This document shows, piece by piece, positions 1,350 to 28,764 of a stretch of 64,000 bases of DNA (the stretch's first letter is position 1; every line of letters starts with the position of its first letter). Made by a program: the position numbers and the translations under genes. Source of the DNA: Synechococcales cyanobacterium (lineage in GTDB: Bacteria; Cyanobacteriota; Cyanobacteriia; Leptolyngbyales; Leptolyngbyaceae); contig JAYUJY010000174.1 of assembly GCA_043764895.1 (NCBI GenBank), positions 412-64,411 of the forward strand. Direction: 5' to 3'. The notes beneath the pieces were generated by a model. That model did no database searches. It was not told where the DNA came from and saw only the letters and a program-made list of their open reading frames with translations.

Positions 1350-1400
1350 AAGTTCTTTATTAAAAACAAGCCCTAATTCATTAATTTAACAGCATTAACA

Positions 1401-6728: not shown

Positions 6729-9614
6729 TCAGTCTACTATCTTAGCCTCTGGAAATTTCTCCGTTACATAGGTTTCAAGATCCTGTATTGCGATCGTAAT
6801 TGCGGCAAGAATCCTACCGATCTCAGATGCCTGTCGATCGGAATCACGATCGGGATCACGATCGGAACCCTCGGTGCTGGCCGTAAGAGGGCTAGTCAGC
6901 GCGGATTGATGGGTTGTGGCGGCGGTCTCAAGCTCCGCTGCTAGTGACGTTAAGACCGAGAGGCCAAGATTTCCGTGGGATCCTCGAATTTGGTGAGCGA
7001 TCGCACGTAACGTTTCATAGTCTTTTCGAGCATGTGCAGTTTGGAGATTGAGACTTCGGGCATGATTTTCGTGGACGGCAAGCTGTAAAAGTTCGATCGC
7101 GAGGGGACGGTTGTCCAAGGTCACTTGCATCAATGCTCTCCAGGCTTCCTCCCAGTTTTGCTTAGGCGGCGGTGCAGATGATGCGGTCTTTAGGGTTGTT
7201 GCTCCATCTGTAGACATTGATTCTTTGGGAGACATTGATTCTTTGGGAGACGTTAACGTGTTTGGATGCATTGTCATCGCTGATAGCTTGATCGAGATGG
7301 CTTGCAACTTGACGTCTAGATCCCCTAGCCGCAAGGGCTTCCCAAAAACATCATTCATCCCCGCATCCAAACAGGCTTTGACCGCAGACTCGGAGATGTT
7401 AGCGGTCATGGCCACAATGTGAATGTTCTGATACGCCTCATGGCTCGATCGAATGCGTTGGGTGACGGCCAGACCATCTAGTTTTGGCATTTGGACATCC
7501 ATCAAGATCAAATCGTAAGGCTGAAGTTTGATTTGTGTTAAAACAGCCTCACCATCGGTAACAACATCAGCGTGGTAGCCCAGTTGAGTGAGTTGAAGAA
7601 GAATCACTTTCTGATTAACTAGGTTATCTTCTGCGAGTAATATCTTTAGGGGCGATCGAGTAACAAGATCCATAGGGCTTAAGGCATTCAATTCACTCAA
7701 TTCATTCTCCACATCACCTTCCTGAGAACGAGCGACAAGCGTAAACAGTGGAACAACTGGAAAATTCAGCGTAAATTCAAATACCGATCCCACCCCGAGT
7801 TCACTGGTGACCTGCAATTGTCCACCCATCTGATTTACCAACTGTTGACTAATCACCAGTCCTAGCCCCGTCCCACCGTAACGTCGCTGAATGGACGAAT
7901 CCGCTTGAACAAAGGGCTGAAAAAGCCGATCGATCTGCGGTTTGGACATGCCAATTCCTGAATCTATGACTCGAAAGGTGAGGGAATAGAGGGTATTAGG
8001 GTCATTAGGTTGAGATTTGGTTTGCTGAGATTTAGTTTGCTGAGGTCTAACACGAGTCGAACCTGTTACTTCTAGACGCACTTGTCCCCGATCGGTAAAT
8101 TTCACCGCATTCCCTAAAAGATTAAGCAACACCTGCCGCAACCGCAAACCATCGCCCAGAAGTGCCGATGATGAACCGGACTGAAGATTTTTTTGAAGCG
8201 TCGTCTGAATACTATCCTGAATCCTGTATTGGAGTCCAATCGCCTTGGCATGGGCTTTCGTCTCAAGCAATGCGATCGTGAGCTTGACTTCATCGAATAG
8301 ATCAAAGGGAACTGATTCTAGCGATAGCTTCCCGGCATCAATCTTCGCAAAATCCAACACATCATTAATCAATCCCAACAACATCTCCCCGCTGCGATCG
8401 ATCGTTTGAATAGAGTCGCGATCTTGAGCGTCAAGTCCCGTGCGAGCCAATAGCAAATCGGTCATTCCCAAAATGCCATTCAACGGCGTCCGCAATTCAT
8501 GACTCATCACCGCCAAAAACTCACTCCGAACTTGCAGCAGCGCCTGTATCCGCAACCGATCGTTCACCACCGCAACTCCGCCCACTCCGCCCAACAACAA
8601 ACAAGGTGCAACCACCGGAATCCATACATTCAGATGAATCGCCACAAGTGCCCCGCTCACCCAAAGCCCTATTGATCCCACCACCACTGCGCACTGAACG
8701 CCCCAAGACCACCGACTCAACCCCCAGCTCAACAGTGCGCCCAAGGGCACTAATGCCCAAATATAGAGAGGATTTAGAACTAGTAAAAAGTTGTTTTGTA
8801 AAATATTATTGATCACCGTCAGATGAAAATAAACGCCGCTGCTGGGGACACTTCGATCGAAAGGCGTTTGAAGCGAGTCTGCCCCTGTGGTAGTCATGCC
8901 GATAAGGACGATTTTGTCTGTAAAAGCTGAGGCCGGAATTTCCCGAGCGAGGACGCTAGAAAAGCTATACCGAGTCGCTTTAGCGGTCGGTCCCTGCCAG
9001 TTCAGCCACAGTAACCGATCGCTTGGCAGCTTTACCGAGTCCTGTGTGATGAGCGAGTGGGTCTGAGAAACCGTAATTCCAAAGGCGTCTACACCCTGCT
9101 CATTAGGCTTGAGCGATCGGGCAATCCCGTCAGAACTACTTCGAGTCATGATATGTCCCATGCCGATCAAAGATTTCTGGAGCGCGGGACTTGGAAAGAT
9201 AGGCATTTGGTCCTGAGTCCAAGCAAGCGGCATCACAACGCGTTGATACTCATCCATCGCCTTCGCCAGTCCAGCATCTTCCCGACTTGGCTCTGAAAGA
9301 AGGATATCAAAGGCAATGACGCTTGGATTGGCGGGAGTGAGTTGTTCGATGAGCTGCTGATATCGCTTGCGAGACCACGGAAATGCCCCTAATTTTCTTA
9401 GACTATCGTCATCAATTTCAATCACGACCACTCGATCGTCCCAAGAACGCGCTCCTCTAGATTGAAACAAAACCCGATAGCTAGCATCTTCTAACGTCTG
9501 CCACATTCCACCCATTTGGGCCAAGCTCAGCCCCAACCCCAACAGGACACCAGGAAGCATTTTCACAAGATGAGGAGAGATTTTTTGAAGTTGAGCAGGC
9601 AGCATAGGGGACAA
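6729..9614 (-). CDS. CHASE2-sensor hybrid histidine kinase (CHASE2-TM-HisKA-HATPase-REC-HPt)
   Basis: CHASE2-like N-terminus (VVVIEIDDDSLRKLGAFPWSRKRY...AFDILLSEPS). H-box [14 protein letters not shown]-boxes DSGIGM/GGTGLGL, REC (ILLAEDN...LILMDVQMPKLDG), HPt (AHQIRGSHGNLG). Confidence 0.9.
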   Translation of the reverse strand: MSPMLPAQLQKISPHLVKMLPGVLLGLGLSLAQMGGMWQTLEDASYRVLFQSRGARSWDDRVVVIEIDDDSLRKLGAFPWSRKRYQQLIEQLTPANPSVIAFDILLSEPSREDAGLAKAMDEYQRVVMPLAWTQDQMPIFPSPALQKSLIGMGHIMTRSSSDGIARSLKPNEQGVDAFGITVSQTHSLITQDSVKLPSDRLLWLNWQGPTAKATRYSFSSVLAREIPASAFTDKIVLIGMTTTGADSLQTPFDRSVPSSGVYFHLTVINNILQNNFLLVLNPLYIWALVPLGALLSWGLSRWSWGVQCAVVVGSIGLWVSGALVAIHLNVWIPVVAPCLLLGGVGGVAVVNDRLRIQALLQVRSEFLAVMSHELRTPLNGILGMTDLLLARTGLDAQDRDSIQTIDRSGEMLLGLINDVLDFAKIDAGKLSLESVPFDLFDEVKLTIALLETKAHAKAIGLQYRIQDSIQTTLQKNLQSGSSSALLGDGLRLRQVLLNLLGNAVKFTDRGQVRLEVTGSTRVRPQQTKSQQTKSQPNDPNTLYSLTFRVIDSGIGMSKPQIDRLFQPFVQADSSIQRRYGGTGLGLVISQQLVNQMGGQLQVTSELGVGSVFEFTLNFPVVPLFTLVARSQEGDVENELSELNALSPMDLVTRSPLKILLAEDNLVNQKVILLQLTQLGYHADVVTDGEAVLTQIKLQPYDLILMDVQMPKLDGLAVTQRIRSSHEAYQNIHIVAMTANISESAVKACLDAGMNDVFGKPLRLGDLDVKLQAISIKLSAMTMHPNTLTSPKESMSPKESMSTDGATTLKTASSAPPPKQNWEEAWRALMQVTLDNRPLAIELLQLAVHENHARSLNLQTAHARKDYETLRAIAHQIRGSHGNLGLSVLTSLAAELETAATTHQSALTSPLTASTEGSDRDPDRDSDRQASEIGRILAAITIAIQDLETYVTEKFPEAKIVD

Positions 9615-9744: not shown

Positions 9745-11322
9745 TTACACCGAAGACTTTATTGGAATCCAAATCCGAAATTCCGTTCCCTGACCTATTT
9801 TTGAGCAGCATTTTAGGGTTCCTTTATGTTTTTCGACAATAATCTGGTAGCTGATAGATAAGCCCAAGCCAGTGCCTTTTCCAACAGGCTTTGTCGTAAA
9901 AAAGGGATCAAATAAACGATGCTGAATTTTCTCTAGAATTCCAATTCCATTGTCAATGATGCGAATCATCACGCCATCAGATTCGATCGCAGTACAGATC
10001 TGAATTTCTGGTTGTTTAATAAGTTTTTGTTGACAAGCCGACTCCATAGCGTCAATAGAATTGCTCAGTAGATTCATAAAAACTTGGTTGAGAAGACCCG
10101 CTGCACAGTCTATCAACGGCAAGTCAGCATATTGCTTGATCAGTATAATAGGAGGATGGTCGTAGCACGCTTTAAGCCGATACTGTAAAATAAGTAAGGT
10201 ACTTTCAAGGCCATCATGAATGTTTACCTGTTTAAATTCCGATTCATCCATGCGTGAGAAATTTCTGAGCGACAGCACAATATCCTGAATTCGACTCGCA
10301 CCCACTTGCATGGATGAAATAACTTGTAAAAAATCAATTTTCAAGAAATCGAACTCGATCTCATCCAATGTATGTTGGACGGATTTTGTTAAAACTGGAT
10401 AGGCAGTTTGGTAGACTGAAACTAGTTTAAATAAATCGTTTGTGTACTTGCTTACATAGGTTAAATTACCATAGATAAAGTTAACTGGATTATTGATTTC
10501 ATGGGCGATTCCGGCGACAAGCTGCCCGAGAGACGACATCTTTTCGGTTTGAATCAATTGACTTTGGGTCGATCGCAGCTTAGAAAGCGTCGTCTTTAAA
10601 GTTTCAGCTTGATCGTGAGTGGCTTGATACAATAACGCTTGCCCGATCGCACCCGTTACCTGTGCGAGCAAGTTCGATAAGACCACTAAATAATCAGCTT
10701 GGGCCGTCACGCGCGCGAATAGCGTTGCTTGATGGGCCGTATTGCCAACTGCAATTAAATATTGAGAAGTGGCATGAGTCGATCGAATCGGACAAAGAAT
10801 AAATTCGTCCATCCCCAACGTAGACCCTAAGTTAGGTTCGATCGGGGCATCAAGGGGACTTAAAATAAAATCTTGACCATCACTTCGATTTTTCAATCCT
10901 CCTAAACAAGGCCAGTCTAAAAGGGATAGCGTAAACTCGATCGGAGCTTCATCATCATCATAGCCGTCCCACAAAAAAGCCCTGAATACGTCTGAAGGAT
11001 CAGTATTTGACAACACATCCCGTTTAAAAATTAAGCATCGCTCAAAATTGAGATCGTACAGCATAAACTCCATAGCAATGGTTAATATTTCCGTCGGGAC
11101 AAACGTTGCTTTAAGGCGTTTTGCAATTTCATTGAGTTTCCGATAAAAATTAACTTGTACATCAAGTTTATTCTGAAACTCAATCATCGATCGTTCGACT
11201 TGAACCAGCCGTGTTACTTGGGCAACAAGCTGCTGATTAGAGGTCTCGACATGCTGTAAAGTACTCAGTTTATTGCGCAGTTTTTGGTTTTCAGCCTGAA
11301 GCCTTTCTAGTTCGAGGTTCAT
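9745..11322 (-). CDS. Sensor histidine kinase with N-terminal coiled coil and GAF-like region
   Basis: H-box GIAHEINNPVNF, N-box NLLSNSIDA, G-boxes DNGIGI/GKGTGLGLS. Confidence 0.85.
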   Translation of the reverse strand: MNLELERLQAENQKLRNKLSTLQHVETSNQQLVAQVTRLVQVERSMIEFQNKLDVQVNFYRKLNEIAKRLKATFVPTEILTIAMEFMLYDLNFERCLIFKRDVLSNTDPSDVFRAFLWDGYDDDEAPIEFTLSLLDWPCLGGLKNRSDGQDFILSPLDAPIEPNLGSTLGMDEFILCPIRSTHATSQYLIAVGNTAHQATLFARVTAQADYLVVLSNLLAQVTGAIGQALLYQATHDQAETLKTTLSKLRSTQSQLIQTEKMSSLGQLVAGIAHEINNPVNFIYGNLTYVSKYTNDLFKLVSVYQTAYPVLTKSVQHTLDEIEFDFLKIDFLQVISSMQVGASRIQDIVLSLRNFSRMDESEFKQVNIHDGLESTLLILQYRLKACYDHPPIILIKQYADLPLIDCAAGLLNQVFMNLLSNSIDAMESACQQKLIKQPEIQICTAIESDGVMIRIIDNGIGILEKIQHRLFDPFFTTKPVGKGTGLGLSISYQIIVEKHKGTLKCCSKIGQGTEFRIWIPIKSSV

Positions 11323-11349: not shown

Positions 11350-12543
11350 TTATGAATAGATAGCAACTAGGACGAGCGTATAGTTGTGAAATGTGTTTCG
11401 TTGTCCGATCGGGGCGATTTCCCCATGGGAATAGAAGCCAATCCAAGGGAGATCTGTGCCAATACTGTTCTGGAGTTGATGGAGATTCTGATGCTTTTGA
11501 TTCTCTGTTAAAACTGATTTTCCTCGACCATAGCAATCAAACTGAAAGATCAACTTTGGCGATCGTCCGTCAAGTTGATCCTTAATAGATTGAGCCAGTT
11601 TTTCGGTGCCTTGGTAGATGAGTTCTTGGTCGCGTCGCATCACCCAAATGCTAGTTCCTTCAAACACCTCTGTTTGTAAGATTACTGCTCCCGCTGCTTC
11701 ATCTTTACGAGGTAAATAGCGAATCGCAAACTCGTCCTCACCCTGAAGTTTAAACCCGAAGCAAAAGGAAACCATGGTGCGATCCCATCGAGCCAGCTCG
11801 TCCTCCCTGAAGTACTGCCGCAGCACTTCAAAAACGGGTCTATGATCGAGTTCATAAATCATGTTGTCTGTCGCACGCGTGATTTTGTACTCAGTGCCGA
11901 TCGGAACACAGCCATGATTTGCGGCCCATGCAACTTGAGCGGTGCCAGACATAAGTGCAACAACGGTCCCATCCGTCAACACGCGATCGTCACAAAACTG
12001 GTACGTTAGTTTCATGTCTAAATTACTACCCGCAGCCCCGCCTAAGATGGGCAAGAAGTTTTGTGTTTGCAGCGTAGACTGTAGGCCCGTCGCAAGTCTA
12101 TCAAAGTTGAGGGTCAGCCCATCGGTAAAGAGGAATAGGGCGATCGGATTAGTCGGCATATCTATCTGAATCTTACGGCCCAAGGCTTTTCCCACCTGCT
12201 CAAAACTCAGTCTCTCAGAATCAGTTTCCTGATGATGCGTAAGGTGAGTTTTAAAGTGCAATTCATCAGACCTAATCACCATTACAGCAACAGAAAAACT
12301 AGATTCGTCTGCCTCTCCCTGTACGATCACGCCTTGCCCAGAGCAGCCGACCAAAGGACATCCTCCGGTCACTTGCCTAACGGCGGACAATAATTTTTCT
12401 GGATTGTATCCTAGTGAAGCGAAAAGTAGGACAAAATCCGGCTCCTCAGTTCCCGCCGCAAGAAATGCTTTTTTAACAGCCTCTTGAGCAGCTTTAACGG
12501 CGTTTCGCTGGTGACTAACTCCAACTCCAGTGAGCGTTCCCAT
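11350..12543 (-). CDS. FIST-domain signal-sensing protein
   Basis: 397-aa ORF with FIST_N/FIST_C-like layout (PDFVLLFAS...GCPLVGCSGQGVI...FLPILGGAAG...SHGEIAP). Sits directly upstream of the kinase. Confidence 0.75.
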   Translation of the reverse strand: MGTLTGVGVSHQRNAVKAAQEAVKKAFLAAGTEEPDFVLLFASLGYNPEKLLSAVRQVTGGCPLVGCSGQGVIVQGEADESSFSVAVMVIRSDELHFKTHLTHHQETDSERLSFEQVGKALGRKIQIDMPTNPIALFLFTDGLTLNFDRLATGLQSTLQTQNFLPILGGAAGSNLDMKLTYQFCDDRVLTDGTVVALMSGTAQVAWAANHGCVPIGTEYKITRATDNMIYELDHRPVFEVLRQYFREDELARWDRTMVSFCFGFKLQGEDEFAIRYLPRKDEAAGAVILQTEVFEGTSIWVMRRDQELIYQGTEKLAQSIKDQLDGRSPKLIFQFDCYGRGKSVLTENQKHQNLHQLQNSIGTDLPWIGFYSHGEIAPIGQRNTFHNYTLVLVAIYS

Positions 12544-12686
12544 GATTTATTTCTCCGTTAATTCTGCGTATCAACATCAACTATAAGCCGCTGTATTTAA
12601 GCGGCCTAAATCTGTGTATTGATAGAGTTCCCTAATGTATTAACAACAGAACATGCGATTAATCACACTAAAGTTAGAGATTATGG

Positions 12687-13706
12687 CTAAATACTGGGTT
12701 TTTGAGCCACGATCGTGCGGTGACGAGGGTCTGATTCGACGGTGTGACCGTTGACAAACCCTGTGTTTGTCAGGGCTGCTTCAATGTCAAAGGTATAGTA
12801 ATCGTCTGTCCAGGGTTCTGTACTTTTCATTAGAGTAAAGAGCACGGGCGGAAGGCTCTGAATCACTTGAGAGTATGGATTGTTATCGACGATCGCACAG
12901 GTTCCGCCCGGTCTGAGAATCCGGTTGATTTCTTGAAAAATTTCCACCGTGGCCGATCGAGGCAATTCATGCAAAACAAATTGCAGCGTCACTAAGTCAA
13001 ACGATTCATTGGCAAACCCTGTAGCTTCAGCTCGTCCATGAATCCAGGCGGCAATCTTATGCTCTGGGTCTCTCTGTTGGGCGATCGCTAACATATAAGG
13101 GGACAAGTCAAATCCAGTCGTGTAGACCGGGCTATTTTGCTGGGATTGATAATAGTGATGGAGCGTCAATGTTGATATTCCAACGCTACAGCCGATGTCT
13201 AGAATATCGATCGCAGTGACCTGTTGATCCGCTAAAACTTGATGAAAACTCGATCGCAATCGGGCCTGTGCCTCAACGGCTGTTAGTGCTTCTTCTTTCC
13301 AGATGCGGAGGGCCATGGAATAAGTTGCAGACTCCGCTTCAAAAGCCGCATCCCAACAAAGATTTCCGTCATCATAGGCATGGAACGGAACTTGATAATA
13401 ATCAGGATATTGAATCGTTGGGTTGGTCACATTTTTTAGGGTCGATTGGATTCCCGAAGCCTTTAACCGTTCGTAATTTTCACGCCAAGGAATGCCATTT
13501 TTTTCAGCCGTCTTAATCAAGACCTGACGAGCTTGCTGCTTCATTACGCTGTAAATAGGCTTCGTCTTGATCAAACGGTTGACGACCCGAGATAACAGGT
13601 TTTCCCCAGCCCAATCCGGCTTTTGCTTTTTGACCGTGGCTTCTTGACCTGTGGCTTTTTGACCTGTGGCTTCTTGACCTGTGAAGTGTTGCATTTCAGC
13701 GCTCAT
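12687..13706 (-). CDS. Class I SAM-dependent methyltransferase
   Basis: Motif I ILDIGCSVGIST and post-I/II motifs (LRPGGTCAIVD). The N-terminus carries a 15-bp in-frame tandem repeat (ATGQE/K x3). Confidence 0.8.
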   Translation of the reverse strand: MSAEMQHFTGQEATGQKATGQEATVKKQKPDWAGENLLSRVVNRLIKTKPIYSVMKQQARQVLIKTAEKNGIPWRENYERLKASGIQSTLKNVTNPTIQYPDYYQVPFHAYDDGNLCWDAAFEAESATYSMALRIWKEEALTAVEAQARLRSSFHQVLADQQVTAIDILDIGCSVGISTLTLHHYYQSQQNSPVYTTGFDLSPYMLAIAQQRDPEHKIAAWIHGRAEATGFANESFDLVTLQFVLHELPRSATVEIFQEINRILRPGGTCAIVDNNPYSQVIQSLPPVLFTLMKSTEPWTDDYYTFDIEAALTNTGFVNGHTVESDPRHRTIVAQKPSI

Positions 13707-13747
13707 AAGTTAACTGACCCAAATAACCGACCCAAACGAAGCAATTT

Positions 13748-14833
13748 CTATTTTAGCGGGAGTGGGCGCGCGACTACAATTCCGATCGCCCCATCGACAT
13801 TCCCGACATAAGTCGCCAAATCCGGTGATATTTTAATACCCGATCGCACCGACGCGTGCATGAGTCCGGTTCTTGACGATCGCGCTGTTCCATTGGTGTC
13901 AAGACGCTGATACACGATTCCACTATGAGTCACATCCAACTCTTTCATGCGAGTAACAATGCCAACGACATCACCGGGCTGAAGCTTAGAATAATGCTGA
14001 GAAATCTGCTGAGTGGGAATATAAAATACATTCTTCGTCTCGATCGCGGCTTCGGTTTCAGCAATGCAGGTGCGAAATTTTAGAGATGCAACTAAGACTG
14101 GATATTTCCTCCAATTCTGACTCATAAAGGAAAGCGATCGATCTAATGGGACACCCCCAAGCGATTGGCCCAGCTCTTGAACGAGTCCTCGCCTGTTGTG
14201 GTCCAATATCCAGTCTGAAAAATAGTGTAATCGACTGCAATAGTCACCTAAAGTTCCATTGCGATAACGATACTGCTGCAACGCATTAAAAAACAACGTT
14301 TCCGCTTGTGTGTCTGAAAGATTAGGCTGTTGGAACGTCTGCGCTAGAGCTAATACCGTTTCAACAAATAAGACACAATCAAACTGCTGAAGTGATGCGG
14401 TTAAGGTTTCCTGACCTGATCCATTTTGCAATGCATTTCGTGATGTGTTCTGCAATACGCGATCGAGTAAATTTGCCTGATATTCACTGCCTAAAAATGA
14501 TTCGCCAACGCGTTGTGTCAGTGTTCCGATCGGTAAGTTTCTCCAATCTTCAGTTCTAGCACGGCTACGAAGTTGATTAAAGATTTTGCGATCGCTTGGA
14601 CTCAGGGTGACAACGGAAAGGTCGATCGGTTGGGACGATGACACGGATGGCAATGAGAAACGGGATGGCGTAGCACGGGGTATCACCCGAATCTGAGGGG
14701 CTGCACTCACGGCTGTATCATGCATAGAAGACGTCGGTGCCGTGACCCAAAATAGTGCGCCTATCCCACACGATAGACCTCCCAATCCCCCGATCGTCCA
14801 TCGATGCCCCAAAGATCCCATTACACGCCTCAA
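13748..14833 (-). CDS. Secreted DUF1460-like (amidase-like) protein
   Basis: Signal/TM segment near the N-terminus. The blocks FLGSEYQANLLD...FDCVLFVETVLALA...HYFSDWI...THSGIVY resemble the DUF1460 family as I recall it. Confidence 0.45.
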   Translation of the reverse strand: MRRVMGSLGHRWTIGGLGGLSCGIGALFWVTAPTSSMHDTAVSAAPQIRVIPRATPSRFSLPSVSSSQPIDLSVVTLSPSDRKIFNQLRSRARTEDWRNLPIGTLTQRVGESFLGSEYQANLLDRVLQNTSRNALQNGSGQETLTASLQQFDCVLFVETVLALAQTFQQPNLSDTQAETLFFNALQQYRYRNGTLGDYCSRLHYFSDWILDHNRRGLVQELGQSLGGVPLDRSLSFMSQNWRKYPVLVASLKFRTCIAETEAAIETKNVFYIPTQQISQHYSKLQPGDVVGIVTRMKELDVTHSGIVYQRLDTNGTARSSRTGLMHASVRSGIKISPDLATYVGNVDGAIGIVVARPLPLK

Positions 14834-14964
14834 TTCACACTTTATTTCACCTGGGTTACTTTAACATTTCAAGCTACGGTTGAACTAAGTATTGAGCCAA
14901 ATTTTCGACCATCGTGCAATATTCTTCAATATTTCGATTAATATAAGCGTAATACTCCAAACTA

Positions 14965-15417
14965 ATGGAATCTTTTACTATGTTCATCCAATCTTTAAAA
15001 TTCATCGCACTCGGGGTCATGGGTGCGATCGCACTTAACGTCGTCACACCAACCCTTACCTCCGCAAAAGACGCCGCAAAACAGGCTCCACAAGCAGCCA
15101 CGCCTACCGCTAGAAAAGCTGCCCCATCCATTTGGGAGCAACTCAACCTCACCAAAGAACAAAAAGGTAAGCTCCAAGCTCTCCGAACTAAGCGAACCAT
15201 TACCATCAGCAAGGTTCTCAATAAAGATCAAAAAGCGACCTTTGATAAGCTGCGCGGCAAGAAGAAAGTGATGGACATGTTCACGGAACTCAAGCTAGAC
15301 GTAAACCAACAGAAATTGGTAAAGGCAGCGATCCAACAGGCCAATAAGGACATCATCTTAGTCCTCACCCCAGAACAACAAAAGCAACTCAGTGCCCGTA
15401 AGGAATCGGCTGAGTAG
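14965..15417 (+). CDS. Periplasmic Spy/CpxP-like (LTXXQ-motif) protein
   Basis: Signal peptide, then LNLTKEQKGKL and LTPEQQKQL motifs. 150 aa, lysine/glutamine-rich and helical. Confidence 0.55.
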   Translation: MESFTMFIQSLKFIALGVMGAIALNVVTPTLTSAKDAAKQAPQAATPTARKAAPSIWEQLNLTKEQKGKLQALRTKRTITISKVLNKDQKATFDKLRGKKKVMDMFTELKLDVNQQKLVKAAIQQANKDIILVLTPEQQKQLSARKESAE

Positions 15418-15460: not shown

Positions 15461-16828
15461 CTATTCCATAGGTAGACAAATTCTAAATTCAGATCCCTTG
15501 CCCTGAACAGACGTGCAGTCTAACGTTCCATGGTGTTTATCGACGATAATCTGTTGACTAATGGCAAGACCTAATCCTGTGCCACGACCGATCGGTTTGG
15601 TGGTGAAAGACTGCTCAAAAATGCGTTCTCGAATGGATTCTGGAACACCGATTCCATTGTCACGAATGGTAAAATAAACTTCATTTCGATCGACATTAGC
15701 AGATGTAATAATTTCAATCTGCCCGATGTGATTCTTCAAGTGATCGGGCTGCTCATAGTATTCATCAATGGCATCAATCGCATTTGCGATGACATTCATA
15801 AACACTTGATTGAGAGGTCCAGCATAGGCATCAATGGCTGGAATAGCGCCTAAAGAGGAGACGACTTGTATTTCAGGACGAGTGCTGTTGGCTTTCAGAC
15901 GATGCTTCAAAATCATCAGGGTGCTTTCTAACCCGTCATGAATCTGTATTTTCTCCTTTGCATGATCATCCGATCGGGCAAAACTTCGTAGCGACAGGCT
16001 AATTTCCTGAATTCGCGAAGAACTCGTCTGCATTGACTTTAGAAGCTTCGGCAAATCTTCTGCTAGATAGTCTACTTCTATTTCTTCTGAACGAGTTGTT
16101 ATCTGAGGATCGGGCGTTGGGTAAATCTCTTGATATAGAGCGATCAATCCTAAAAGATCTTGAATATAGCTAACGGCATGTTTGATATTTCCGTCAATGC
16201 AGCCAATGGGGTTATTGATTTCATGTCCAATGCCTGCAACAAGCTGCCCCAAGACCGACATTTTTTCACTTTGAATCAGTTGAAGTTGAGCCGTTTGAAG
16301 CTGATTGAGAGAGCCTTCAAGTTCTTGAGTTCGCTCTAGGACGCGCTGTTCAAGACGGTTGTTGAGATAGAATAAGTTGAGATGAAGCTTAATTCGAGCG
16401 AGGACTTCCTCATGTTGAAAAGGCTTGGTAATATAATCAACAGCCCCAAGTTCTAGTCCCTTCACCTTGTCTACTGTATCAGAAAGGGCAGTCATGAAAA
16501 TAATCGGCAGACGCTGCGTTCTTGGGTTAGCTTTGAGCTGACGACAGGTCTCAAAACCGTCAATTCCAGGCATCATGACATCCAGCAAAATCAAGTCGGG
16601 CAGGGCATAGTCTACTTGCTCAATAGCCGACTCACCGTCTGTTGCCACGAGCGTCGTCCAGCCTTGATCGCGAAGGGCATCCGACAAAACTTTTAGGTTG
16701 GTGGGATTATCATCCACAATTAGAATTTTGGGCGTGGATGAAAAATATTCTATTGACCCCTTGCGATCGCTGATCGTCTCACCGATCGTCACCGCGATGG
16801 TCGAAATGGGTTGAGCGCTAGCGATCAT
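15461..16828 (-). CDS. REC-domain histidine kinase (response regulator fused to HisKA/HATPase)
   Basis: REC ([10 protein letters not shown]...[13 protein letters not shown]...KP). H-box [12 protein letters not shown]-boxes [15 protein letters not shown]. The start overlaps the upstream kinase stop (ATGA). Confidence 0.9.
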
Positions 16829-19716
16829 GATACAGACTCCAAGGGAGCGAAGGATTTAAGGAACTCACGAATCTTTTTAGTTTGAAAACTATTCACAAGC
16901 GGACTCAATGCTGCGACAAAAGGTTCAAGTTCAGGATGATTCTTTGAGATTGTTTCTAGAGTGCCCGAGAGCGTCTGCAAATCACCCATCATTGCCAAAT
17001 GGCGTAGTTTTTCAAGCACGTCTGGACTCGGTGCAATCATCGGACCTGTGGGTTGTTTTGGCAGATGGTTTGTACTTGCAGCGGCACTGGACAAATCCTC
17101 GGCAAGAGCATAGGACCACTCTATGGGAAGAAGCTGGCCTAAGTGCGTGACAAGCTGCTCAAACTGAATGGGTTTGGCCAAGAAACCATTGGCCCCAGCT
17201 TGAAGACTGCGGGTTTGATCAGCCTCAAACACACTGGCGCTGGCGATCAAAATGGGTCGATCGGTCCACTCAGGTTGGGTTCGGAGTTGTTTGACGAGGC
17301 TAGCTCCGTCAAGTTTGGGAAGATTGAGATCGGAGATAGTGAGGTCGGGCTGGAGCGATTGGGCGATGGCTAAACCTGAGGCTCCGTCTTCGGCTTCTGT
17401 GACCTTAAACCCGAGATCTTTGAGCCAGATGGAGAGCAGTTGACGGTTCATCGCATCGTCGTCGATGAGCAGAATGTGCGGGATGAAGTCGGTTAAAGAA
17501 ACGTCTGAATTAGGAATGACTTTGCGACTGAATCCGACAATGCGAGAGGGAGTAATAGCCTCGTGCGATCGGCTAGACGTAATCACCGGAAGCGTGAGGT
17601 CGAAGAAGAAAATACTGCCTTCCCCAGCCTGACTCTGGACTTGGAGTTGGCTCTCCATGAGGTTGACGATGTTGGTACTAATGGCGAGACCCAAGCCAGT
17701 GCCTTCCGATTGTTTGCCCACATCACCCACCTGTTCAAAGGGCAGAAAAATCTTTTCTAACTGCTCAGGCGACATCCCCACTCCAGTGTCTTCGATTTGA
17801 AAGCGTAGCCGTGTGGTGTGATGGACTTTGGGCTGGGCCGCCGTAGACGAGTCGAGTTCGGTGACGCGCAGGGTGACGCTCCCTTGTTCGGTGAATTTAG
17901 TTGCGTTTCCTAAGAGATTAATGAGCACCTGACGCAACCGTTTTTCATCAGATTGGATGCAAATCGGCAGTTGAGCCTGAAAATCCACTTTAAATTGCAA
18001 TGCCTTCTGCTCAGCCCTCACTCGACAAATTTCGACCACGCCCTGCAAAAAAGGCAGCAACATGATTTCGCCGGGAGCCAGTTCGAGTTTGCGCGCTTCG
18101 ATTTTCGAGAGGTCGAGAATGTCGTTAATTAGGGTCAGCAGATGAGTGCCGCACTGGTGAATGATGTTAACGCCTTCTTTTTCTCCTTGGCTAAAAGTCT
18201 TCGATCGGGACAAAATTTGCGCATATCCAAGAATTCCGTTCAGAGGCGTGCGCAACTCGTGACTCATATTGGCCAAAAATTCGCTTTTGGCATGGTTCGC
18301 GGAGTCGGCGCAGTCTTTGGCGATCATCAGTTCTTGGGTGCGTTCTTGGACCTTGAGTTCGAGGGTTTTGGAATAGTTGCGAAGCTGGTGGTTGACAATC
18401 GCGAGCTGGTCGTTGGATTCTTCGAGTTTTTGTTGTTTGTGAGCGAGCGTTAGGGCAATAGCGCTTGTCATCAGGGTGCTAAGGGTCGGCACGACGGGAA
18501 TTAGCCAGCCGGATAAAAAGGCTCCGTAGGCACTTCCTAAAATGACGACAATTCCGGCGCTGGTAACGAAGATAAGGCTGCCTGAGGGAAGACGCTTGCG
18601 CTGCGATCGATCGGCAACGGCCCAACTCACGGCGGTGGCGGCGATCGCCCATGCGGTGATCCAACTATAGGTTAGGGGTGCGGTGAAGCTTTGGAGTTGG
18701 GTGGATTGTTGGAGTGCGCCTGTGGTGAGCTGATGGGCGATATTTGCGTGGATTAGGACGCCGGATGTGGGTTGATCGCCGCCAAACCAGGACTGGCTAT
18801 AGGGACTGCCAAAAAAGTCATTGGTACTCTGAGCAATCGAACCAATCAGAACCATTCGATCACGCAAGGTATCGGGTGAGATGCGATCGGCGAGAATATC
18901 CCGCATTTTGACTTGTTTAAATTTCGTGCTGTCGCCATACCAGTTGAGAAAAATCTGATATCCGCCTAGGTCTTGATTCACGTAACCGCCTTCACTATTG
19001 GCAATCTGTCGATAGTGCGTTTTGCCGAGTTGGTAGTAATTTTTAGCTTCGTCCGTAACCTTGAGTTCGATGCCTTTGGTTTTGAGATGGAGCAGGGCTA
19101 CTTGGGTGGCGAGGCCCGGTTTGATGGTTTTGTTTTCTTTTTCATCATCGGCGGTCAGTAGTGCTCGACGAATCCGACGATCGCCATCTAGGGTGAGATC
19201 CGCAAGGCCCACTTGCCCCAGTTTCTTAAGTTCGGGGGGCGGGGGAACTCGATCGCCGATGATCTTTTCGACGCCGATTAGTGCGGGTGTCGTTTGAAAT
19301 ACTTTTTTGAGGTCGTCGTAGCCTTTCCCGACGGGCAGATCACGGTAGAGATCCATGCCAATGGCGGTGGGTTTTTGAGCGCGAATTTTGGTGATCAGTT
19401 GGGCCAGAACGCTGTCTGGAATAGGCCAGTCCCCAACCTGCTGAAGATCTTGTTCATCAATGGTGACGACAATAATTTCAGATTGTTCTTTAGGGTTTTG
19501 CTGGCTTCGCACCCGAAAAAACGTATCACGGGCTTCCCATTCCGGTAGGTTAAATCCGCCGATCGCTTGGATGCCGACAATACTCAGGGTCACGATCGGC
19601 GCAACGCTAAGACAACGCCGCGATCGATAGGCCCAGCTCTGGCTAATCCAACCCTGACGAAGACTTTTTTGGATCTGGAGGAATTTTGGCAACTGGGGGA
19701 AGCGCAATCGAAACAT
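16825..19716 (-). CDS. CHASE2-sensor hybrid histidine kinase (CHASE2-TM-HisKA-HATPase-REC-HPt-like)
   Basis: CHASE2-like N-terminus ([21 protein letters not shown]...GMDLYRD). H-box [29 protein letters not shown] (ILLIDDD...[11 protein letters not shown]). The start is placed at the ATG at 19716, because the longer ORF to 19848 translates repeat R1. Confidence 0.88.
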
Positions 19717-19800
19717 GGGCAATGCGGTGGGAAAGGGCGACAGCGACGAACGGGAAGATAGGCTGTGAAGAGGGAATAGAGCGTGAAAAGGAGAATTTAG

Positions 19801-19873
19801 AAAGCCCCCCAGCCCCCAATTCTGGGGGAGCATGATTCCGAACATCACAGAATTGGGGGTTGAGGGCCGGAAC
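19801..19873. repeat. Palindromic repeat family R1, copy B (reverse orientation)
   Basis: AAAGCCCCCCAGCCCCCAATTCTGGGGGAGCATGATTCCGAA...CAGAATTGGGGGTTGAGGGCCGGAAC matches the reverse complement of 1270-1349. Confidence 0.85.
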
Positions 19874-19912: not shown

Positions 19913-20941
19913 CTACTGGTATTGCAGCATGGGCGCAGACTGAATCGACTGCAATCCTACGGAGGTCAGTAGTTCTTGCCAGTTCTTGCGCGATGCCTCA
20001 TGATCAGGCTTTTGCTCGATCGCTTCGGCAAGGGCAGATGCACTGTCATACCAGATGCCAACACTGGCAAGCGCCTCGGCTCGGGCGATCGCATCGGGCT
20101 TTTTCAAGGCGGCGGTCATTTCAGCCGTGGGTGCGATGCGTTGAATCCAGCCGTCCACGTAGGGCGTACTCGGACTCAGACGACCATCGATTTTCAAGGC
20201 CGTAAGCCACTGATAGTTTTTTCCTACGTCTAGCGCAGGAACCGAGGCGGGCAGTTGGACCCGTGCGATGCCTGCTTCCCCTGAAATCGGCAAAACAGTC
20301 TGATAGATCAACTGTCCAGCTTCATCCTTAAGGCTAAAGACCGCTTCTTCAGCATTGGATTCGGGCAAGTAAACCAAAATGCTCGGACGATCGGATAGCG
20401 TTGTCCCGTAGAACTCTTGTGGCACTAAGGCCATTAGGGCTGCGGGATACTGAGTAGACTCTGCGGGATTGACGTAGGCCGTGGCATCACGAGAGGCTCC
20501 ACCCGCCGTTTGCTTCGGGGCGCTACCGCTGGAGAACATGGCCCCACGGGATGCGCCGCCCACTGCCCGCAAGACTCGACCTGTGGGTTTGAACAGGATG
20601 CCGCGAGAGGCTCCTCCGACGGATTGGCGAATGGTTCGACCCGGCATGGGCTTGAACAAGGTGCCGCGAGAGGCTCCTCCGACGGAGGTTTTGGGTGCGC
20701 CGCCGTTACGGGAGACAAATTGGGTTCCCCGAGATGCGCCGCCTGTGGATTGTTTTGGGGCGGCATTTTGGCGGGAGGGCTTGAATATGACGGCTTGGGC
20801 TGGGGTCATTTCAAGGGCGATCGCGCCTAGGGTGAGGGCGATCAGACTCCAACGGCTCACGAGGGAGCTGGTATGGGTTCCGATCGTAGATTTCCTAACC
20901 ATATATTCTCCGAAGATATATTTGAGAGGGAGTTGTTTCAT
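19913..20941 (-). CDS. Secreted DUF928-family protein with five N-terminal GGASRG-containing repeats
   Basis: Signal peptide ending AQA. Five units of about 20 aa each end in GGASRG/GGASRD (aa 51-155). The C-terminal region (YQWLTALKIDG...PYVDGWIQRI) resembles DUF928. An alternative start lies at 20902. Confidence 0.7.
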   Translation of the reverse strand: MKQLPLKYIFGEYMVRKSTIGTHTSSLVSRWSLIALTLGAIALEMTPAQAVIFKPSRQNAAPKQSTGGASRGTQFVSRNGGAPKTSVGGASRGTLFKPMPGRTIRQSVGGASRGILFKPTGRVLRAVGGASRGAMFSSGSAPKQTAGGASRDATAYVNPAESTQYPAALMALVPQEFYGTTLSDRPSILVYLPESNAEEAVFSLKDEAGQLIYQTVLPISGEAGIARVQLPASVPALDVGKNYQWLTALKIDGRLSPSTPYVDGWIQRIAPTAEMTAALKKPDAIARAEALASVGIWYDSASALAEAIEQKPDHEASRKNWQELLTSVGLQSIQSAPMLQYQ

Positions 20942-21138
20942 GCGTAAACACGGATGAAGAGATCATTCTTTAGCGTAAACAAGGTTGATGAGTCTAGTCG
21001 GTCGTGGAATTGCGTGTTTCCTCGACTGACAGCGGTTGGATGCCGCCGTTTTTCAGTAAAACTACTCTTTTTTGAGGGATCTTTTGAGGAATCTAAGGTA
21101 AGCGTCTGACGCCAGTTAGGGGCTACACCCATTGCGGT

Positions 21139-23817
21139 CTAACGCCAGTTGCCGACCAAGACAAATCCCGACCAGAAAAAGGGATCGTCAAAGTCGGTTT
21201 GTTTCATAATTTCGATTTGGGCTTGGCGGAGGGCTTCGGCCTTGGTGGTGCCCGGTTGGCGGAGGTGAGTATAGAAGCGGGTCATCAGGCTTGCAGCGGC
21301 GGCGTCCTTGACGGGCCATAGGGTGGCAAGAGTCGATCGTGCGCCTGATTTGACCGCGAGTCCAGCGAGTCCTAGGGCCGCATATTCATCGCCCGCTGCC
21401 GTGTCGCAGGCACTGAGGACCAATAGTTCAATCGCTCTGGTGCGGCTAGTCTGCCGGGATTGGAGCACTTCTGACAGTTCTTTGATGTTCATCCGTCCGT
21501 CCCAGGTCAGCAGGAAAGTTTCTTCTTGCCGGGAGCTAAATTGACCGTGGGTGGCGAGGTGGACGACATCGGCGGAGCTATTGCTGAGCCTGTCGGCAAG
21601 GGCTTTGCTGGTAAATTGCTCGTTGAGCAGGGTCCGGGAGTTGACGAGATCGGCGATTTGTTGGATTTCTTTTTTGACGGCGGGGAGTGCGCTAAAACCC
21701 GATCGAGATTCGCTGATACCGCCAACGACGGCTCCAATATGTTGGTTGTCGAGGGGTTTGTCGGCCATGAGCTGCAATCCTGGGGAAAGCGTCACGGCAT
21801 ATTTTTCGATCAGATATTGTTTTCCGTCGTAGAGCGCCGCCATGGGAATGTTCCGCAGTTGGCCGTCTAGTACGAAGACGAGGGTTTTTGTATCCTTGAG
21901 GGCACCTGCTGTTTCTGCCGGACGGATCAGCCAATCGTAGAGCTGACTGGAAATCTCTAGGCGCGTTTTGCGATCGGAGACGGGGTTAATGGCCGCAAGG
22001 AGATTGTTGAGGGTGGTGTTGACCTGTTGGTTATTCCGATTGCTGCTGTGGTAGCGCAGAGGCTGTCCGGCGGTAGAGAAGATCACGGCAATGCGTTCGG
22101 GGAGCAGAATCGGGTAGACGACGGTGGCGGTGCGATCGACTTGATCGATTTGCTTGGCTTTGTCAAGGCAGGCTTCCCGAAAGAAATTATCGAGTTCGGC
22201 CACTTGCAAGGCTTCAATCAGGTTTCGAGCTTGGGTTAGCTCCTCTTGGTTGGGGTTCTGCGTCAGCAAAATATCCACCATTTCCCGATACACAGGTTCC
22301 ACGCTCTCACGGAAGGAGAACTGGATTTCAGGATTGATCGCTACGAGATCCCCACGCAGGGCTTGCAGCGCTTTGGTGGCCTCTTGATAGGCTTGCAGGG
22401 CACGCGATCGATCGTTTTGGGCGTTTAGAATCTGGCCGAGTTGCCATGCGGATTGAGAGATGATGTGTTCGGCTTGCAGTTGGCGCGCGATCGCGAGGGA
22501 TTGTTCGGTGACTTGCTGGGCTTCACGCAACTGTTTGGCTTCGACGTAGACCTGTCCCAATTGATGCAGACCGTAGGCTTCGGCTTCGGCGTCTCCTAAA
22601 CCTCGGGCGGACTGAATGGCTTGGGCTAGCCACTCGGACAAGTCTCGGAGCGGGGCGACTTGGGTGGGATCTTTTAGTCGGTTGATGTTTGCGGTGAGGT
22701 TGATGATGCTGTAAATCGAGAGGCGGCTAGGGGGGAGTTTGAGGAGCTGCGATCGGATATTGGGAAGGCGTGCATTGACTTCCTTGAGGTTGCCTTGGTT
22801 GAGGTAGATATTGAACTGTCCGAGTTGGGCTTGAACTTTTTCCAGTGGATTGACGGCCACTTTTTCCGCTTCTTCGAGATATTTCAACGCCGTTTCGTCT
22901 TTGCCGCTGCTATTGCAGGCATCCCCTAGCGCTAGGAGGGCAGAGCTAAGTTCTGGCGCAGATTTAAGCCGACGGGCGGTCATCACAGCAGCTTCGAGAG
23001 CGGCTTGACTTCCGGTCATGTCACCGACGACTTGCAACACGCTTCCGAGATTCCGAAATCCTGAGATTTTTAAGTCGGAGTCGGGGAGGGTGACGAGTTT
23101 TTGGTTTAAGCCTTCAAGTTGAGTTTTGGCACGACGATAGAAGCCTAGGCTCTGGAGCGCTTGGGCTTGGTTGATTTGGCTTCCAATATTGCCAACGGTG
23201 TCGCCTGCTTTTTCGTAGTATTGTGCAGACTGTTGCCAGGTAGCGAGGGCGAGTTCGGCTTTTCCCGTTTGGAGTAAGATGCCCGCTTGGGTGTTGAGAA
23301 CCTGCGCCCAGAGCGTCGCGTCGGTACCTTTGCCGCCTTGCGTTTGGGACTGTTCTTTGAGGAGTTTTAGGCTGGTATTAATGGCTTCTCTCGCGGCATC
23401 CCATTGATTGAGTTCTTGTTGGGCGAGGGCGAGGTAGTTCAGCGCTAGGGCTTGGGTCGTGCGATCGCCTTGACTAGCGGCTTGGTCGGCGGCGGCTTGC
23501 CAGAGTTTTGCGGCGGCGTTGAATTGTCCGGCTTGATAGGCCGATCGTCCGGCTTCTAAGCCTCCCGTGGCGTCCTTGAGGGGTGCAAAGGTGGGTGCAG
23601 CGGCGATCGAACCGGGCACTGGATTAGGGACTAGGCGATCGAGTGCGGCGGGAACGGTGCGTTTGCTGGGGGTGGGGTTGGCGAGGGTCTGGGCCGTTGC
23701 AAACAGAGGCACACTCATACAGCCTAAGGTGCTAGCCAGCAGGGCATGACGCAAAATCTTCGAGGTCCAGATGGACACCGAAGGCTGAACAGGATGAAGG
23801 CAAGGGCGATCGCGCAT
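21139..23817 (-). CDS. Secreted TPR + CHAT-domain (caspase-like) protease
   Basis: N-terminal signal peptide and multiple TPR-like helices. C-terminal CHAT domain with His (VVHLATHGQF) and Cys (LLVLSACDTAAGD) dyad. Confidence 0.88.
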   Translation of the reverse strand: MRDRPCLHPVQPSVSIWTSKILRHALLASTLGCMSVPLFATAQTLANPTPSKRTVPAALDRLVPNPVPGSIAAAPTFAPLKDATGGLEAGRSAYQAGQFNAAAKLWQAAADQAASQGDRTTQALALNYLALAQQELNQWDAAREAINTSLKLLKEQSQTQGGKGTDATLWAQVLNTQAGILLQTGKAELALATWQQSAQYYEKAGDTVGNIGSQINQAQALQSLGFYRRAKTQLEGLNQKLVTLPDSDLKISGFRNLGSVLQVVGDMTGSQAALEAAVMTARRLKSAPELSSALLALGDACNSSGKDETALKYLEEAEKVAVNPLEKVQAQLGQFNIYLNQGNLKEVNARLPNIRSQLLKLPPSRLSIYSIINLTANINRLKDPTQVAPLRDLSEWLAQAIQSARGLGDAEAEAYGLHQLGQVYVEAKQLREAQQVTEQSLAIARQLQAEHIISQSAWQLGQILNAQNDRSRALQAYQEATKALQALRGDLVAINPEIQFSFRESVEPVYREMVDILLTQNPNQEELTQARNLIEALQVAELDNFFREACLDKAKQIDQVDRTATVVYPILLPERIAVIFSTAGQPLRYHSSNRNNQQVNTTLNNLLAAINPVSDRKTRLEISSQLYDWLIRPAETAGALKDTKTLVFVLDGQLRNIPMAALYDGKQYLIEKYAVTLSPGLQLMADKPLDNQHIGAVVGGISESRSGFSALPAVKKEIQQIADLVNSRTLLNEQFTSKALADRLSNSSADVVHLATHGQFSSRQEETFLLTWDGRMNIKELSEVLQSRQTSRTRAIELLVLSACDTAAGDEYAALGLAGLAVKSGARSTLATLWPVKDAAAASLMTRFYTHLRQPGTTKAEALRQAQIEIMKQTDFDDPFFWSGFVLVGNWR

Positions 23818-24117: not shown

Positions 24118-24828
24118 TTAAGTTCTGATTTCTAACCCATTGGATTCTAATGCTTTAAACCGATCGAGCAAACTTGCTTCGTTATGAAGGTCAATATCTT
24201 TATTGAATTGCTCAGATTCATAGTAGGCTCTAGACCTAAAGCTTGCTTCTTGCTCATATCGATCGGCATTTTTATATCGACGAATGGATGCTGCTAGGAC
24301 ATTAGGAAAATAAATCTGCTGGGAAAACACTTCGCTAGAGCGTTCTAGCCTGATCTGAGCGTACTTCTCGAAGCTTTCAGCGGCAAATGCAATACAGTTG
24401 TTTAGGAACAAGTTGTACCGAAATTCATCTAGGTGTAGCTTTGGCGATCGTGTGTTTGTCCCGACAAATAGTTCATCAATGAGTACACTTGATACCATCT
24501 TGGTGATAAATTCATCGCCTCCAAACGGTGGTGATTTCTTAAAGTACATTCGATCGACGCGCCTTATATCTCTCTGATCGTCGCGAAGCTGGCCTTCTGG
24601 GTAAAAAGAGCAGGTGTAGAGTTCAGGAATCAGTTGGCCGTAGCTATTCTTTTTGGTGAGCAGACAGGCTTCTTTATCACTGGCTTTTTGACAGGCTCTT
24701 AGCTTTTGGATATCAAACTTCATTCCAGCAAGATAAGCATGGCCGATCGAATTTTCACCATCGGTCGATTCGACGCCCAACATGAGAAGAGCCATAGTCT
24801 GATTTGAACTAGTCTGATTTGAACTCAT
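24118..24828 (-). CDS. Hypothetical protein, possible papain-like (PPPDE/LRAT-type His...Cys) fold
   Basis: IGHAYL early in the protein and YNLFLNNCIAFAAESF later resemble the His/Cys signature of permuted papain-fold peptidases. There is a 15-bp tandem duplication at the 5' end (SSNQT x2). Confidence 0.3.
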   Translation of the reverse strand: MSSNQTSSNQTMALLMLGVESTDGENSIGHAYLAGMKFDIQKLRACQKASDKEACLLTKKNSYGQLIPELYTCSFYPEGQLRDDQRDIRRVDRMYFKKSPPFGGDEFITKMVSSVLIDELFVGTNTRSPKLHLDEFRYNLFLNNCIAFAAESFEKYAQIRLERSSEVFSQQIYFPNVLAASIRRYKNADRYEQEASFRSRAYYESEQFNKDIDLHNEASLLDRFKALESNGLEIRT

Positions 24829-27720: not shown

Positions 27721-28764
27721 ATGAAAAACATTCAACTTCCCGAACCTTTAATTGTTCTTGTGCCATCACGGGATACTGCGGCGATCGAATTCCGATCGAG
27801 TTCTAAATCAGAGTCCAAACGATCGCCGCAGTCCACCCCTTCGGACCCAACTGAACTAAGATCGCTGCGAATTGAAGAGTTTTTGTCCGCGCGATCGCTG
27901 TCGCTGAATAGTCAGAAAGCTTACCGCGCAGATCTCACCCGGTTTACCACCTGGAGTAACCAAAGCTGGCAGGCCGCCACTCCACGCTTGATGGCCCAGT
28001 TCAAAACCCATCTGATGCGGGTTGATCCGAAGACGGAATCTCGCGTTCTAGCGGATAGCTCGGTCCAACGCATTGTGCATAGCTTAAAAAGTTTTTATAG
28101 CTGGATGCAAGACACGGGATACATCACGGTTAATCCCATGAAAGCGATCGTCGCCCCGAAAGTCAAACAACCGCAAGCCGATCACTTAACAGATGAACAA
28201 GTCACCGCAATTTTTACAGCAGCCCTAGACCTCCATCCTGCCGAACGCAACCTAGCGCTGCTGTCTGTTTTGCGTCATGGACTGCGGGCGGGGGAAGTGT
28301 GCGGGCTAAATCTAGGCGACTATGACGGCGAACGGGTCACCATTCGCGAAGCCAAGGCAGACAGTACGGGCGTTGTGCCGATTGATGCGGATGGCCAGGG
28401 CTGGATCGATCAGTATTTGCGATTTCGGGCCGATCGAGGCGAAGACCTCACTGACACTAGCCTTCCCCTATTTGTCTCTCACTCCCACCAAAACGATGGC
28501 CAACGGCTCGGCTACCACGGCGTCCAAAAACTCATGGGTGCGATCGGGCGGGTCGTCGGCTTCAAGTTCCACGCCCACCAGTTCCGCCACACCTACGCCA
28601 CCAACCTTGTCCTCAAAGGCATGAACCCTTACCACGTCATGACGCTGACCCGCCACAAGTCACCGCACACCTTCCGCCGCTACACCCAAGCCGCCGACCA
28701 ACTCGCCGCCGAAACCGCCTTTCGATCGATTTCCGAATTTACAACAACCCACGATATCGAATAA
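27721..28764 (+). CDS. Tyrosine recombinase / phage-integrase family (XerC/D-like)
   Basis: Catalytic blocks RHGLRAGEV, HQFRHTYAT, LTRHKSPHTFRRY. The 3' end overlaps the convergent mrp gene by 26 nt. Confidence 0.85.
   Translation: MKNIQLPEPLIVLVPSRDTAAIEFRSSSKSESKRSPQSTPSDPTELRSLRIEEFLSARSLSLNSQKAYRADLTRFTTWSNQSWQAATPRLMAQFKTHLMRVDPKTESRVLADSSVQRIVHSLKSFYSWMQDTGYITVNPMKAIVAPKVKQPQADHLTDEQVTAIFTAALDLHPAERNLALLSVLRHGLRAGEVCGLNLGDYDGERVTIREAKADSTGVVPIDADGQGWIDQYLRFRADRGEDLTDTSLPLFVSHSHQNDGQRLGYHGVQKLMGAIGRVVGFKFHAHQFRHTYATNLVLKGMNPYHVMTLTRHKSPHTFRRYTQAADQLAAETAFRSISEFTTTHDIE

Follow-up and report, generated by a model that had tools for sequence, protein, structure and literature searches.

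The one cyanobacterial CHAT protease whose cleavage site has been mapped is HetF of Anabaena, which cuts PatU3 after Arg117, a residue that is indispensable (PMC9457339). In Burkholderia and Pseudomonas, a LysM-FecR accessory protein with a signal peptide is encoded directly upstream of a CHASE2 transducer, a sensor type whose ligands were described as unknown in papers of 2016 and 2023 (one of them PMC5192318). The DUF928 family (PF06051), which is reported to include Synechocystis sll1891, is mentioned in one paper of the searchable literature, a WD40 survey; according to this survey, Nostoc punctiforme has a DUF928 gene close to a CHASE2 gene, and an acid-stress response of sll1891 is cited (PMC5587647). 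Here we analyze a 64,000-nucleotide stretch of a Synechococcales cyanobacterium contig (the window), in which a DUF928 gene encodes five tandem units of about 20 residues ending in GGASR, between genes for a putatively exported TPR-CHAT cysteine protease and a CHASE2 sensor kinase. Our preferred reading, held tentatively and with somewhat less than an even chance of being right, is that the CHAT protease docks onto the units and cuts them, as part of a periplasmic module controlling the CHASE2 kinase.

Like HetF, the protease in the window is a cyanobacterial CHAT protein with TPRs, and the HetF site has its indispensable Arg. However, the HetF CHAT domain and its substrate are cytoplasmic, and PatU3 is a regulator of division and differentiation, whereas here both partners carry export signals and the presumptive cleavage site is repeated (PMC9457339). 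The position upstream of CHASE2 is all that DUF928 has in common with the LysM-FecR accessory (PMC5192318): Pfam gives DUF928 only, and unlike that protein ours is Ig-like and helical, has a repeated motif and has a protease encoded alongside. With ordinary DUF928 proteins such as sll1891, the last unit and the domain can be aligned, and the box F.PP..G.P..T.GGASRG is common to both, but ordinary members have one box followed by two cysteines (exactly two in the mature part in 113 of 120 single-box proteins), whereas the window's subfamily has 3-9 boxes and has lost both family cysteines, often carrying one unrelated Cys (WYDC). The CHAT-DUF928-CHASE2 module appears to be undescribed in the searchable literature, which held nothing on the box, its amplification or the cassette, no pairing of CHASE2 with CHAT and no relevant GGASRG; hundreds of orthologues stand in the databases as 'DUF928 domain-containing protein'. 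Sensor kinases fed by regulated extracytoplasmic proteolysis, or by an accessory protein, are known, and we regard the present system as a new variation on them.

The gene and its parts are laid out as follows; a slash marks the signal-peptidase cut.

19913..20941, minus strand: DUF928 gene, 342 aa (open reading frame (ORF) list, Pfam PF06051, homologues)
20792..20941, minus strand: predicted Sec-type signal peptide, residues 1-50, with a basic n-region, the h-region WSLIALTLGAIAL and an AQA/V site abutting unit 1
20726..20791, minus strand: unit 1, residues 51-72, 22 aa, VIFKPSRQNAAPKQSTGGASRG
20663..20725, minus strand: unit 2, residues 73-93, 21 aa, TQFVSRNGGAPKTSVGGASRG
20600..20662, minus strand: unit 3, residues 94-114, 21 aa, TLFKPMPGRTIRQSVGGASRG
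20543..20599, minus strand: unit 4, residues 115-133, 19 aa, ILFKPTGRVLRAVGGASRG
20486..20542, minus strand: unit 5, residues 134-152, 19 aa, AMFSSGSAPKQTAGGASRD; counterpart of the single motif in ordinary DUF928 proteins
20435..20485, minus strand: low-confidence linker, residues 153-169 (AlphaFold predicted local distance difference test score (pLDDT) <50 for residues 144-167)
19916..20434, minus strand: folded DUF928 domain, residues 170-342, predicted as an Ig-like seven-strand sandwich plus a C-terminal helical bundle (AlphaFold, Foldseek)

A preliminary description of this DNA had placed five tandem units directly after the predicted signal-peptide cleavage site. We confirmed this: the units fill residues 51-152 (20486-20791, minus strand), begin immediately after the AQA site, and are translated as the peptide quoted there. 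The coordinates given earlier were correct overall, except that the low end, 20477, overshoots the last GGASRD by 9 nt. All five units have Phe at position 3; the tail is GGASRG in units 1-4 and GGASRD in unit 5. Five copies of GGASR were observed in residues 51-152, against a mean of 0.006 and a maximum of 2 in 200,000 shuffles, and a chance origin is excluded. At the DNA level, Tandem Repeats Finder reported no tandem array at the units, just one pair of units was alike (93% over 40 nt), and the tails are written in varying codons (GGC GGC GCA TCT CGG GGA; GGA GGA GCC TCT CGC GGC; GGC GGC GCA TCC CGT GGG; and, for GGASRD, GGT GGA GCC TCT CGT GAT). Because there is no DNA array and the synonymous codons differ, the repeat has been kept at the peptide level by selection and not by recent duplication. 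Among the loci scanned, the motif P..x.GGxSR occurred in DUF928 ORFs only, and in no other gene of the window.

A protein homology search found 426 homologues of the window DUF928 protein, and unit statistics were taken from 120 listed homologues (43-93% identical; Nostocales, Leptolyngbya, Pantanalinema, Alkalinema, Desertifilum and others) with 504 internal units. All 120 carry units, spaced by 19-23 aa and with the same boundaries; a linker without conserved boundaries, which the preliminary description had named as the outcome that would speak against it, was clearly not seen. The copy number, with every GGxSR counted, ranges from 3 to 9 with a mode of 5, and protein lengths rise in steps of about 22 aa (306, 328, 350, 372, 394). 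GGASR is invariant in 504/504 internal units. Around it, the consensus N-L-F-T-P-x-x-G-x-G-A-P-x-Q-A-T-G-G-A-S-R-G is conserved at 60-94% in nearly every position (F 94%, P5 87%, P12 92%, Q 79%, A 82%). The invariant Arg at the unit end is compatible with the P1 residue of an Arg-specific CHAT (clan CD) protease. The residue after it is Gly in 92% of internal units and Val, Leu or Asp in the last unit, which would fit a graded or protected final site. In the window's clade, the GAP box is missing from units 3 and 4, and since orthologues of 65-83% identity show the same oddity, the individual units are old and not freshly homogenized.

We next consider the family as a whole. With unit 5 and the domain as query against 1.84 billion cluster representatives, 4317 DUF928 representatives were retrieved. 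In the best 150 of these, the box occurs once in 82, two to six times in 28 and not at all in 40, the last figure being a regular-expression count that includes fragments and variant boxes. Whether one or many units are typical, a comparison proposed in the preliminary description, thus has a split answer: one is typical of the family and many (3-9) of the window's subfamily. Because one unit is the family norm, the function of the motif needs no multiple copies. Across 47 diverse single-box members, invariance in the N-terminal part is limited to G, G and R (G-G-x-x-R), and F, P-P, P and a Cys 3-5 residues past the Arg are nearly invariant. As judged from these alignments, the unit is the family-defining N-terminal box of DUF928 (x-L/V-F-x-P-P-x-x-G-x-P-x-x-T-G-G-A-S-R-G), amplified in one subfamily; the window protein has the F.PP..G.P..T.GG(A/G)(S/T)R box after its signal peptide in five copies. 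In single-box members, one of the two cysteines lies 3-5 residues after the Arg and the other in the sandwich (..ilC..), a pairing that suggests a disulfide.

The window protein is a clear DUF928 member, matching PF06051 over residues 147-338 (E=4.6e-51; 173.6 bits vs. a gathering cut-off of 26); no NCBIfam model matches it. In an AlphaFold model built with 48 sequences, residues 170-342 form a seven-strand sandwich and four helices at a pLDDT of about 90. The repeats score 34-63, with short low-confidence strands drawn at the GGASRG positions, and a stable beta-solenoid was rejected on account of this low confidence. For the single-box relative P0160, the model likewise has a confident domain, with a pLDDT <50 in the GGGSR loop. 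To judge from these models, the box appears to lie outside the fold as an exposed linear motif. The best Foldseek match of the domain was the C-terminal domain of MtxA (4z29; E=5e-5; TM 0.52, normalized to the target), followed by FN3- or CBM-like sandwiches; a PDB sequence search with the family profile gave spurious histone matches only. MtxA resembles DUF928 in being exported, in combining an Ig-like seven-strand sandwich with a TPR-like helical domain and in lying beside signal-transduction genes, but it has no detectable sequence similarity to DUF928 and no GGASRG box (PMC4439547).

Signal peptides and membrane topology of DUF928, the CHAT protein and the kinase were assigned by eye and hydropathy. 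The DUF928 signal peptide ends in ...LGAIALEMTPAQA/V, and unit 1 begins right there; the AXA/VTF junction is kept in homologues (e.g. …SAYA/VTFTPP…), in which the predicted signal-peptidase site likewise abuts unit 1. The start codon is ambiguous, Met1 (20941) or Met14 (20902). Read from the first ATG (20902-20941, minus strand), the N-terminus exceeds that of most homologues by 13-24 aa; the long form is also seen in the closest relatives (92-93% identical), and a start at Met14 (MVRKSTIG...) would make the signal peptide more typical. A scan for promoters and terminators was uninformative, giving fewer matches than shuffles did. The antisense ORFs reported earlier at 20481-20957 and 20510-20830 (plus strand) are present in the ORF list; a real antisense gene was rejected, as they shadow a strongly supported minus-strand gene and the homology evidence is all for that strand.

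Three further genes complete the cassette:

21139..23817, minus strand: TPR-CHAT protease with predicted export signal, 892 aa, upstream of DUF928 (Pfam CHAT, E=9.6e-65, plus TPR_12)
16825..19848, minus strand: CHASE2-HisKA-HATPase-REC hybrid sensor kinase, 1007 aa (Pfam), starting 64 nt past the DUF928 stop
15461..16828, minus strand: REC-HisKA-HATPase kinase (response-regulator kinase, RR-kinase), 455 aa (Pfam), the fourth cassette gene, overlapping the stop of the CHASE2 kinase by 4 nt

The CHASE2 domain spans kinase residues 87-404 (Pfam) and, in the translation read by eye, is flanked by hydrophobic segments. The order TPR-CHAT, DUF928, CHASE2 kinase, RR-kinase recurs in about 75 of the 80 related genomes, which come from Nostocales, Leptolyngbya, Pantanalinema, Alkalinema and Lyngbya; Tolypothrix PCC 7910 has it as well. 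Wherever the contig is long enough, order and strand of the four genes are identical in the 80 loci, with the exception of one, L033. We also examined the contexts of eight individual single-box genes. A TPR-CHAT gene is nearby in seven of these, the eighth lying at a contig end, and a CHASE2 gene follows immediately in five, its output being a kinase, a GGDEF domain or a cyclase. DUF928, CHAT and CHASE2 thus form a conserved module, with DUF928 as its hub.

The CHAT protein of the window has the catalytic motifs HLATHG and LSACDTA and a signal-peptide-like N-terminal segment. The catalytic HxxxHG and SAC motifs are present in all 76 CHAT partners taken from the loci. Read from the first ATG, almost all of these partners also have an N-terminal signal peptide with an AXA site (e.g. 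MxFxIKQxRWLYISLSILSLCLAVTITPARA/S); the few without one look like mis-called starts. Since both proteins have predicted signal peptides with AXA sites, the CHAT protease and DUF928 are predicted to share a compartment. By sequence, the TPRs alone had a solved relative, the best match being the TPRs of Pins/LGN, and none was detectable for the CHAT domain. Pins/LGN TPRs bind long extended peptides.

Taken together, an invariant, exposed Arg box, an adjacent protease predicted to be exported and a sensor encoded downstream are best explained by periplasmic proteolytic signalling. In the mechanism that we propose, each unit of about 20 residues would be held in extended form by the TPR array of the exported TPR-CHAT cysteine protease, and the CHAT domain would cut with the invariant GGASR Arg in the P1 position. 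The activity of the CHASE2 hybrid histidine kinase and of the RR-kinase, its partner, would in turn depend on how DUF928 has been processed, and amplification to 3-9 units could provide avidity or allow stepwise trimming.

Several points weigh against this proposal. Binding and cutting of the units by the protease, the cut after Arg and the readout by CHASE2 are steps that we infer, and the linkage to CHAT and CHASE2 speaks for a shared pathway without giving the direction of action. The motif could equally serve as a ligand for CHASE2 or inhibit the protease. The conserved stretch of about 20 residues is longer than a typical protease site requires, HetF is a remote CHAT relative with another topology (its CHAT domain is cytoplasmic), and the signal peptides and topology were judged by eye and hydropathy alone. 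Finally, the repeat locus L033 has no CHAT gene upstream, and some DUF928 genes have no CHASE2 neighbour.

The explanation that survives best beside cleavage, although we find it doubtful, is that the units are a multivalent binding motif that stays uncut. They would dock onto the CHASE2 domain and cluster receptors, or onto the TPR array as an inhibitor or pseudosubstrate that keeps the protease inactive. An extended-peptide ligand, more than a cleavage site, would have its whole 20-22 aa conserved, as is found here; the motif appears exposed in the models, the best solved relatives of the TPR region are the peptide-binding Pins/LGN repeats, and directly behind five of the eight single-motif genes stands a CHASE2 gene, the outputs of which vary. 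However, the catalytic dyad is intact in 76/76 partner proteases and proteolysis is therefore part of the system. An Arg-specific clan CD protease needs just such an invariant Arg, and the linkage to CHAT (7/8) is tighter than that to CHASE2 (5/8).

We consider it unlikely that the protein is a multi-copy propeptide, as the preliminary description had suggested, from which peptides of about 20 aa ending in GGASR(G) are released, by the protease or another enzyme, as a diffusible signal to be sensed by CHASE2 in the periplasm along the filament or outside the cell. Multi-copy precursors such as yeast alpha-factor (cut by Kex2), the cyanobactin precursor PatE and neuropeptide precursors have tandem units with invariant basic-residue ends, a variable copy number and a dedicated protease. 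The units here are real, their conserved boundaries are in register with the signal-peptidase site, so that each piece would read xxF.P...GGASR(G), and their number ranges between 3 and 9, with about 22 aa to each step, as in known precursors. Genes for a protease and for an extracytoplasmic sensor without a known ligand adjoin. In addition, the conserved Cys of single-motif members sits past the Arg, and a cut there would free an N-terminal peptide. In contrast to such precursors, which hold little beyond leader and cores, DUF928 retains a folded domain of 170 aa after the units that is conserved and strongly selected, and one copy is the norm in its relatives. Furthermore, the units in the window are not identical, since units 3 and 4, in orthologues as well, lack the GAP box, and there is no RGSGR motif. 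The peptide idea was thus partly supported, by the units, their boundaries and the neighbouring protease and sensor genes, and was weakened by the usual single copy and the retained domain. Slightly more improbable is a fuller version, a new form of cyanobacterial peptide signalling in which the exported TPR-CHAT protease, cutting after each invariant Arg, would free GGASR-ended CHASE2 ligands of about 20 aa, the number of units would set the dose and the periplasm along the filament would link cells.

The preliminary description had also drawn an analogy with the heterocyst peptides PatS and HetN. These are likewise small Arg/Gly/Ser-rich peptides from cyanobacteria, but their motif is RGSGR, which DUF928 lacks, and the target of PatS, HetR, is cytoplasmic. 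A DUF928 family member is also present in a Waterburya metagenome-assembled genome (MAG). Synechocystis and Waterburya are unicellular, and Synechocystis forms no heterocysts. With no RGSGR in the 342 aa, partners predicted to be periplasmic and not cytoplasmic, and the family reported in Synechocystis (PMC5587647), the analogy is unsupported and a PatS-like morphogen was rejected. A double-glycine leader was rejected as well, as the signal is of Sec type and neither a C39 peptidase nor an ABC exporter was found in the Pfam-scanned ORFs of the window or the gene tables of related loci, and so was a formylglycine/sulfatase-type site, the motif not being C/SxPxR.

Two last readings have very little probability each. 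A passive element, a disordered spacer or weak beta-hairpin scaffold that positions the DUF928 domain in the periplasm, would agree with the low pLDDT, the Pro/Gly/Ser/Ala-rich composition, the short low-confidence strands at the GGASRG positions and the labile copy number, but hardly with a five-residue core that is invariant in 504 units across cyanobacterial orders while synonymous sites drift, or with the box being the most conserved part of single-copy relatives. An attachment site, at which CHAT acts as a transpeptidase joining the DUF928 Arg to another molecule, for instance the cell wall or a two-partner-secretion (TPS)-domain exoprotein, is similarly improbable: clan CD includes transamidases, and in 41 of 74 repeat loci the gene directly upstream of CHAT has a TPS domain, with a TPS gene elsewhere in the flank in at least 17 more, yet the window's cassette has no TPS gene and the motif is N-terminal and repeated, unlike known sorting signals.

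A TPS gene is present at 5/8 of the single-box loci, and the full module may include a secreted TpsA-like exoprotein. The TPS protein encoded upstream of TPR-CHAT is about 850-1050 aa long (L003-L081, at about 1400-4000 in locus coordinates; L083-L087), and in L084 and L086 the TPS gene stands beside one for a protein of about 490 aa with no Pfam match on record (confirmed for L084). At the corresponding position in the window, directly upstream of CHAT, is a 236-aa ORF (24118-24828, minus strand) that has no Pfam or NCBIfam match and no homologue in about 90 related loci. In a Nostoc locus (L015), a second DUF928 gene and a convergent second TPR-CHAT gene follow right after the cassette (12198-14891); as this locus holds a second DUF928/TPR-CHAT pair, the modules are paralogous and able to cluster. 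Two MAG contigs labelled 'Actinomycetota bacterium', L060 (JBLNEP010000040.1, with the whole cassette) and P0272, carry a typical cyanobacterial DUF928 and are probably mis-binned.

Elsewhere in the window is a second CHASE2 hybrid kinase (CHASE2-HisKA-HATPase-REC-Hpt; 6729-9614, minus strand), followed by a REC/Trans_reg_C/REC/GGDEF protein (4279-6642, minus strand). Neither a DUF928 nor a CHAT gene belongs to this second system (4279-9614), and the window has no further GGxSR box. Between the two CHASE2 systems are genes for a histidine kinase (9745-11322), a FIST N+C sensor protein (11350-12543), a methyltransferase (12687-13706), an AmiA-like amidase (13748-14833) and an LTXXQ periplasmic protein (14965-15417, plus strand); the amidase and methyltransferase genes recur downstream of the cassette in the 83%-identical relative L090. 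Other large genes encode an NB-ARC and TPR (STAND-type) protein (42536-44935, minus strand), a Ser/Thr kinase with a long TPR array (59298-61919, minus strand) and a 1463-aa SNF2-family helicase with TPRs (34754-39145, plus strand), and there is a phage-type integrase (27721-28764, plus strand).

CHASE2 is a widespread extracytoplasmic sensor domain of histidine kinases, cyclases, GGDEF proteins and Ser/Thr kinases. The rigid cassette joins it to DUF928, a family with no assigned function, and to the exported TPR-CHAT proteases of cyanobacteria, which have no known substrates. An invariant, exposed motif with an Arg is a likely contact point between them and makes the question of what CHASE2 senses experimentally tractable. 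If cleavage does free the units as signals, this would be a new type of bacterial peptide signalling; if they are not released, the module would still be a new case of a two-component system fed by regulated proteolysis in the periplasm.

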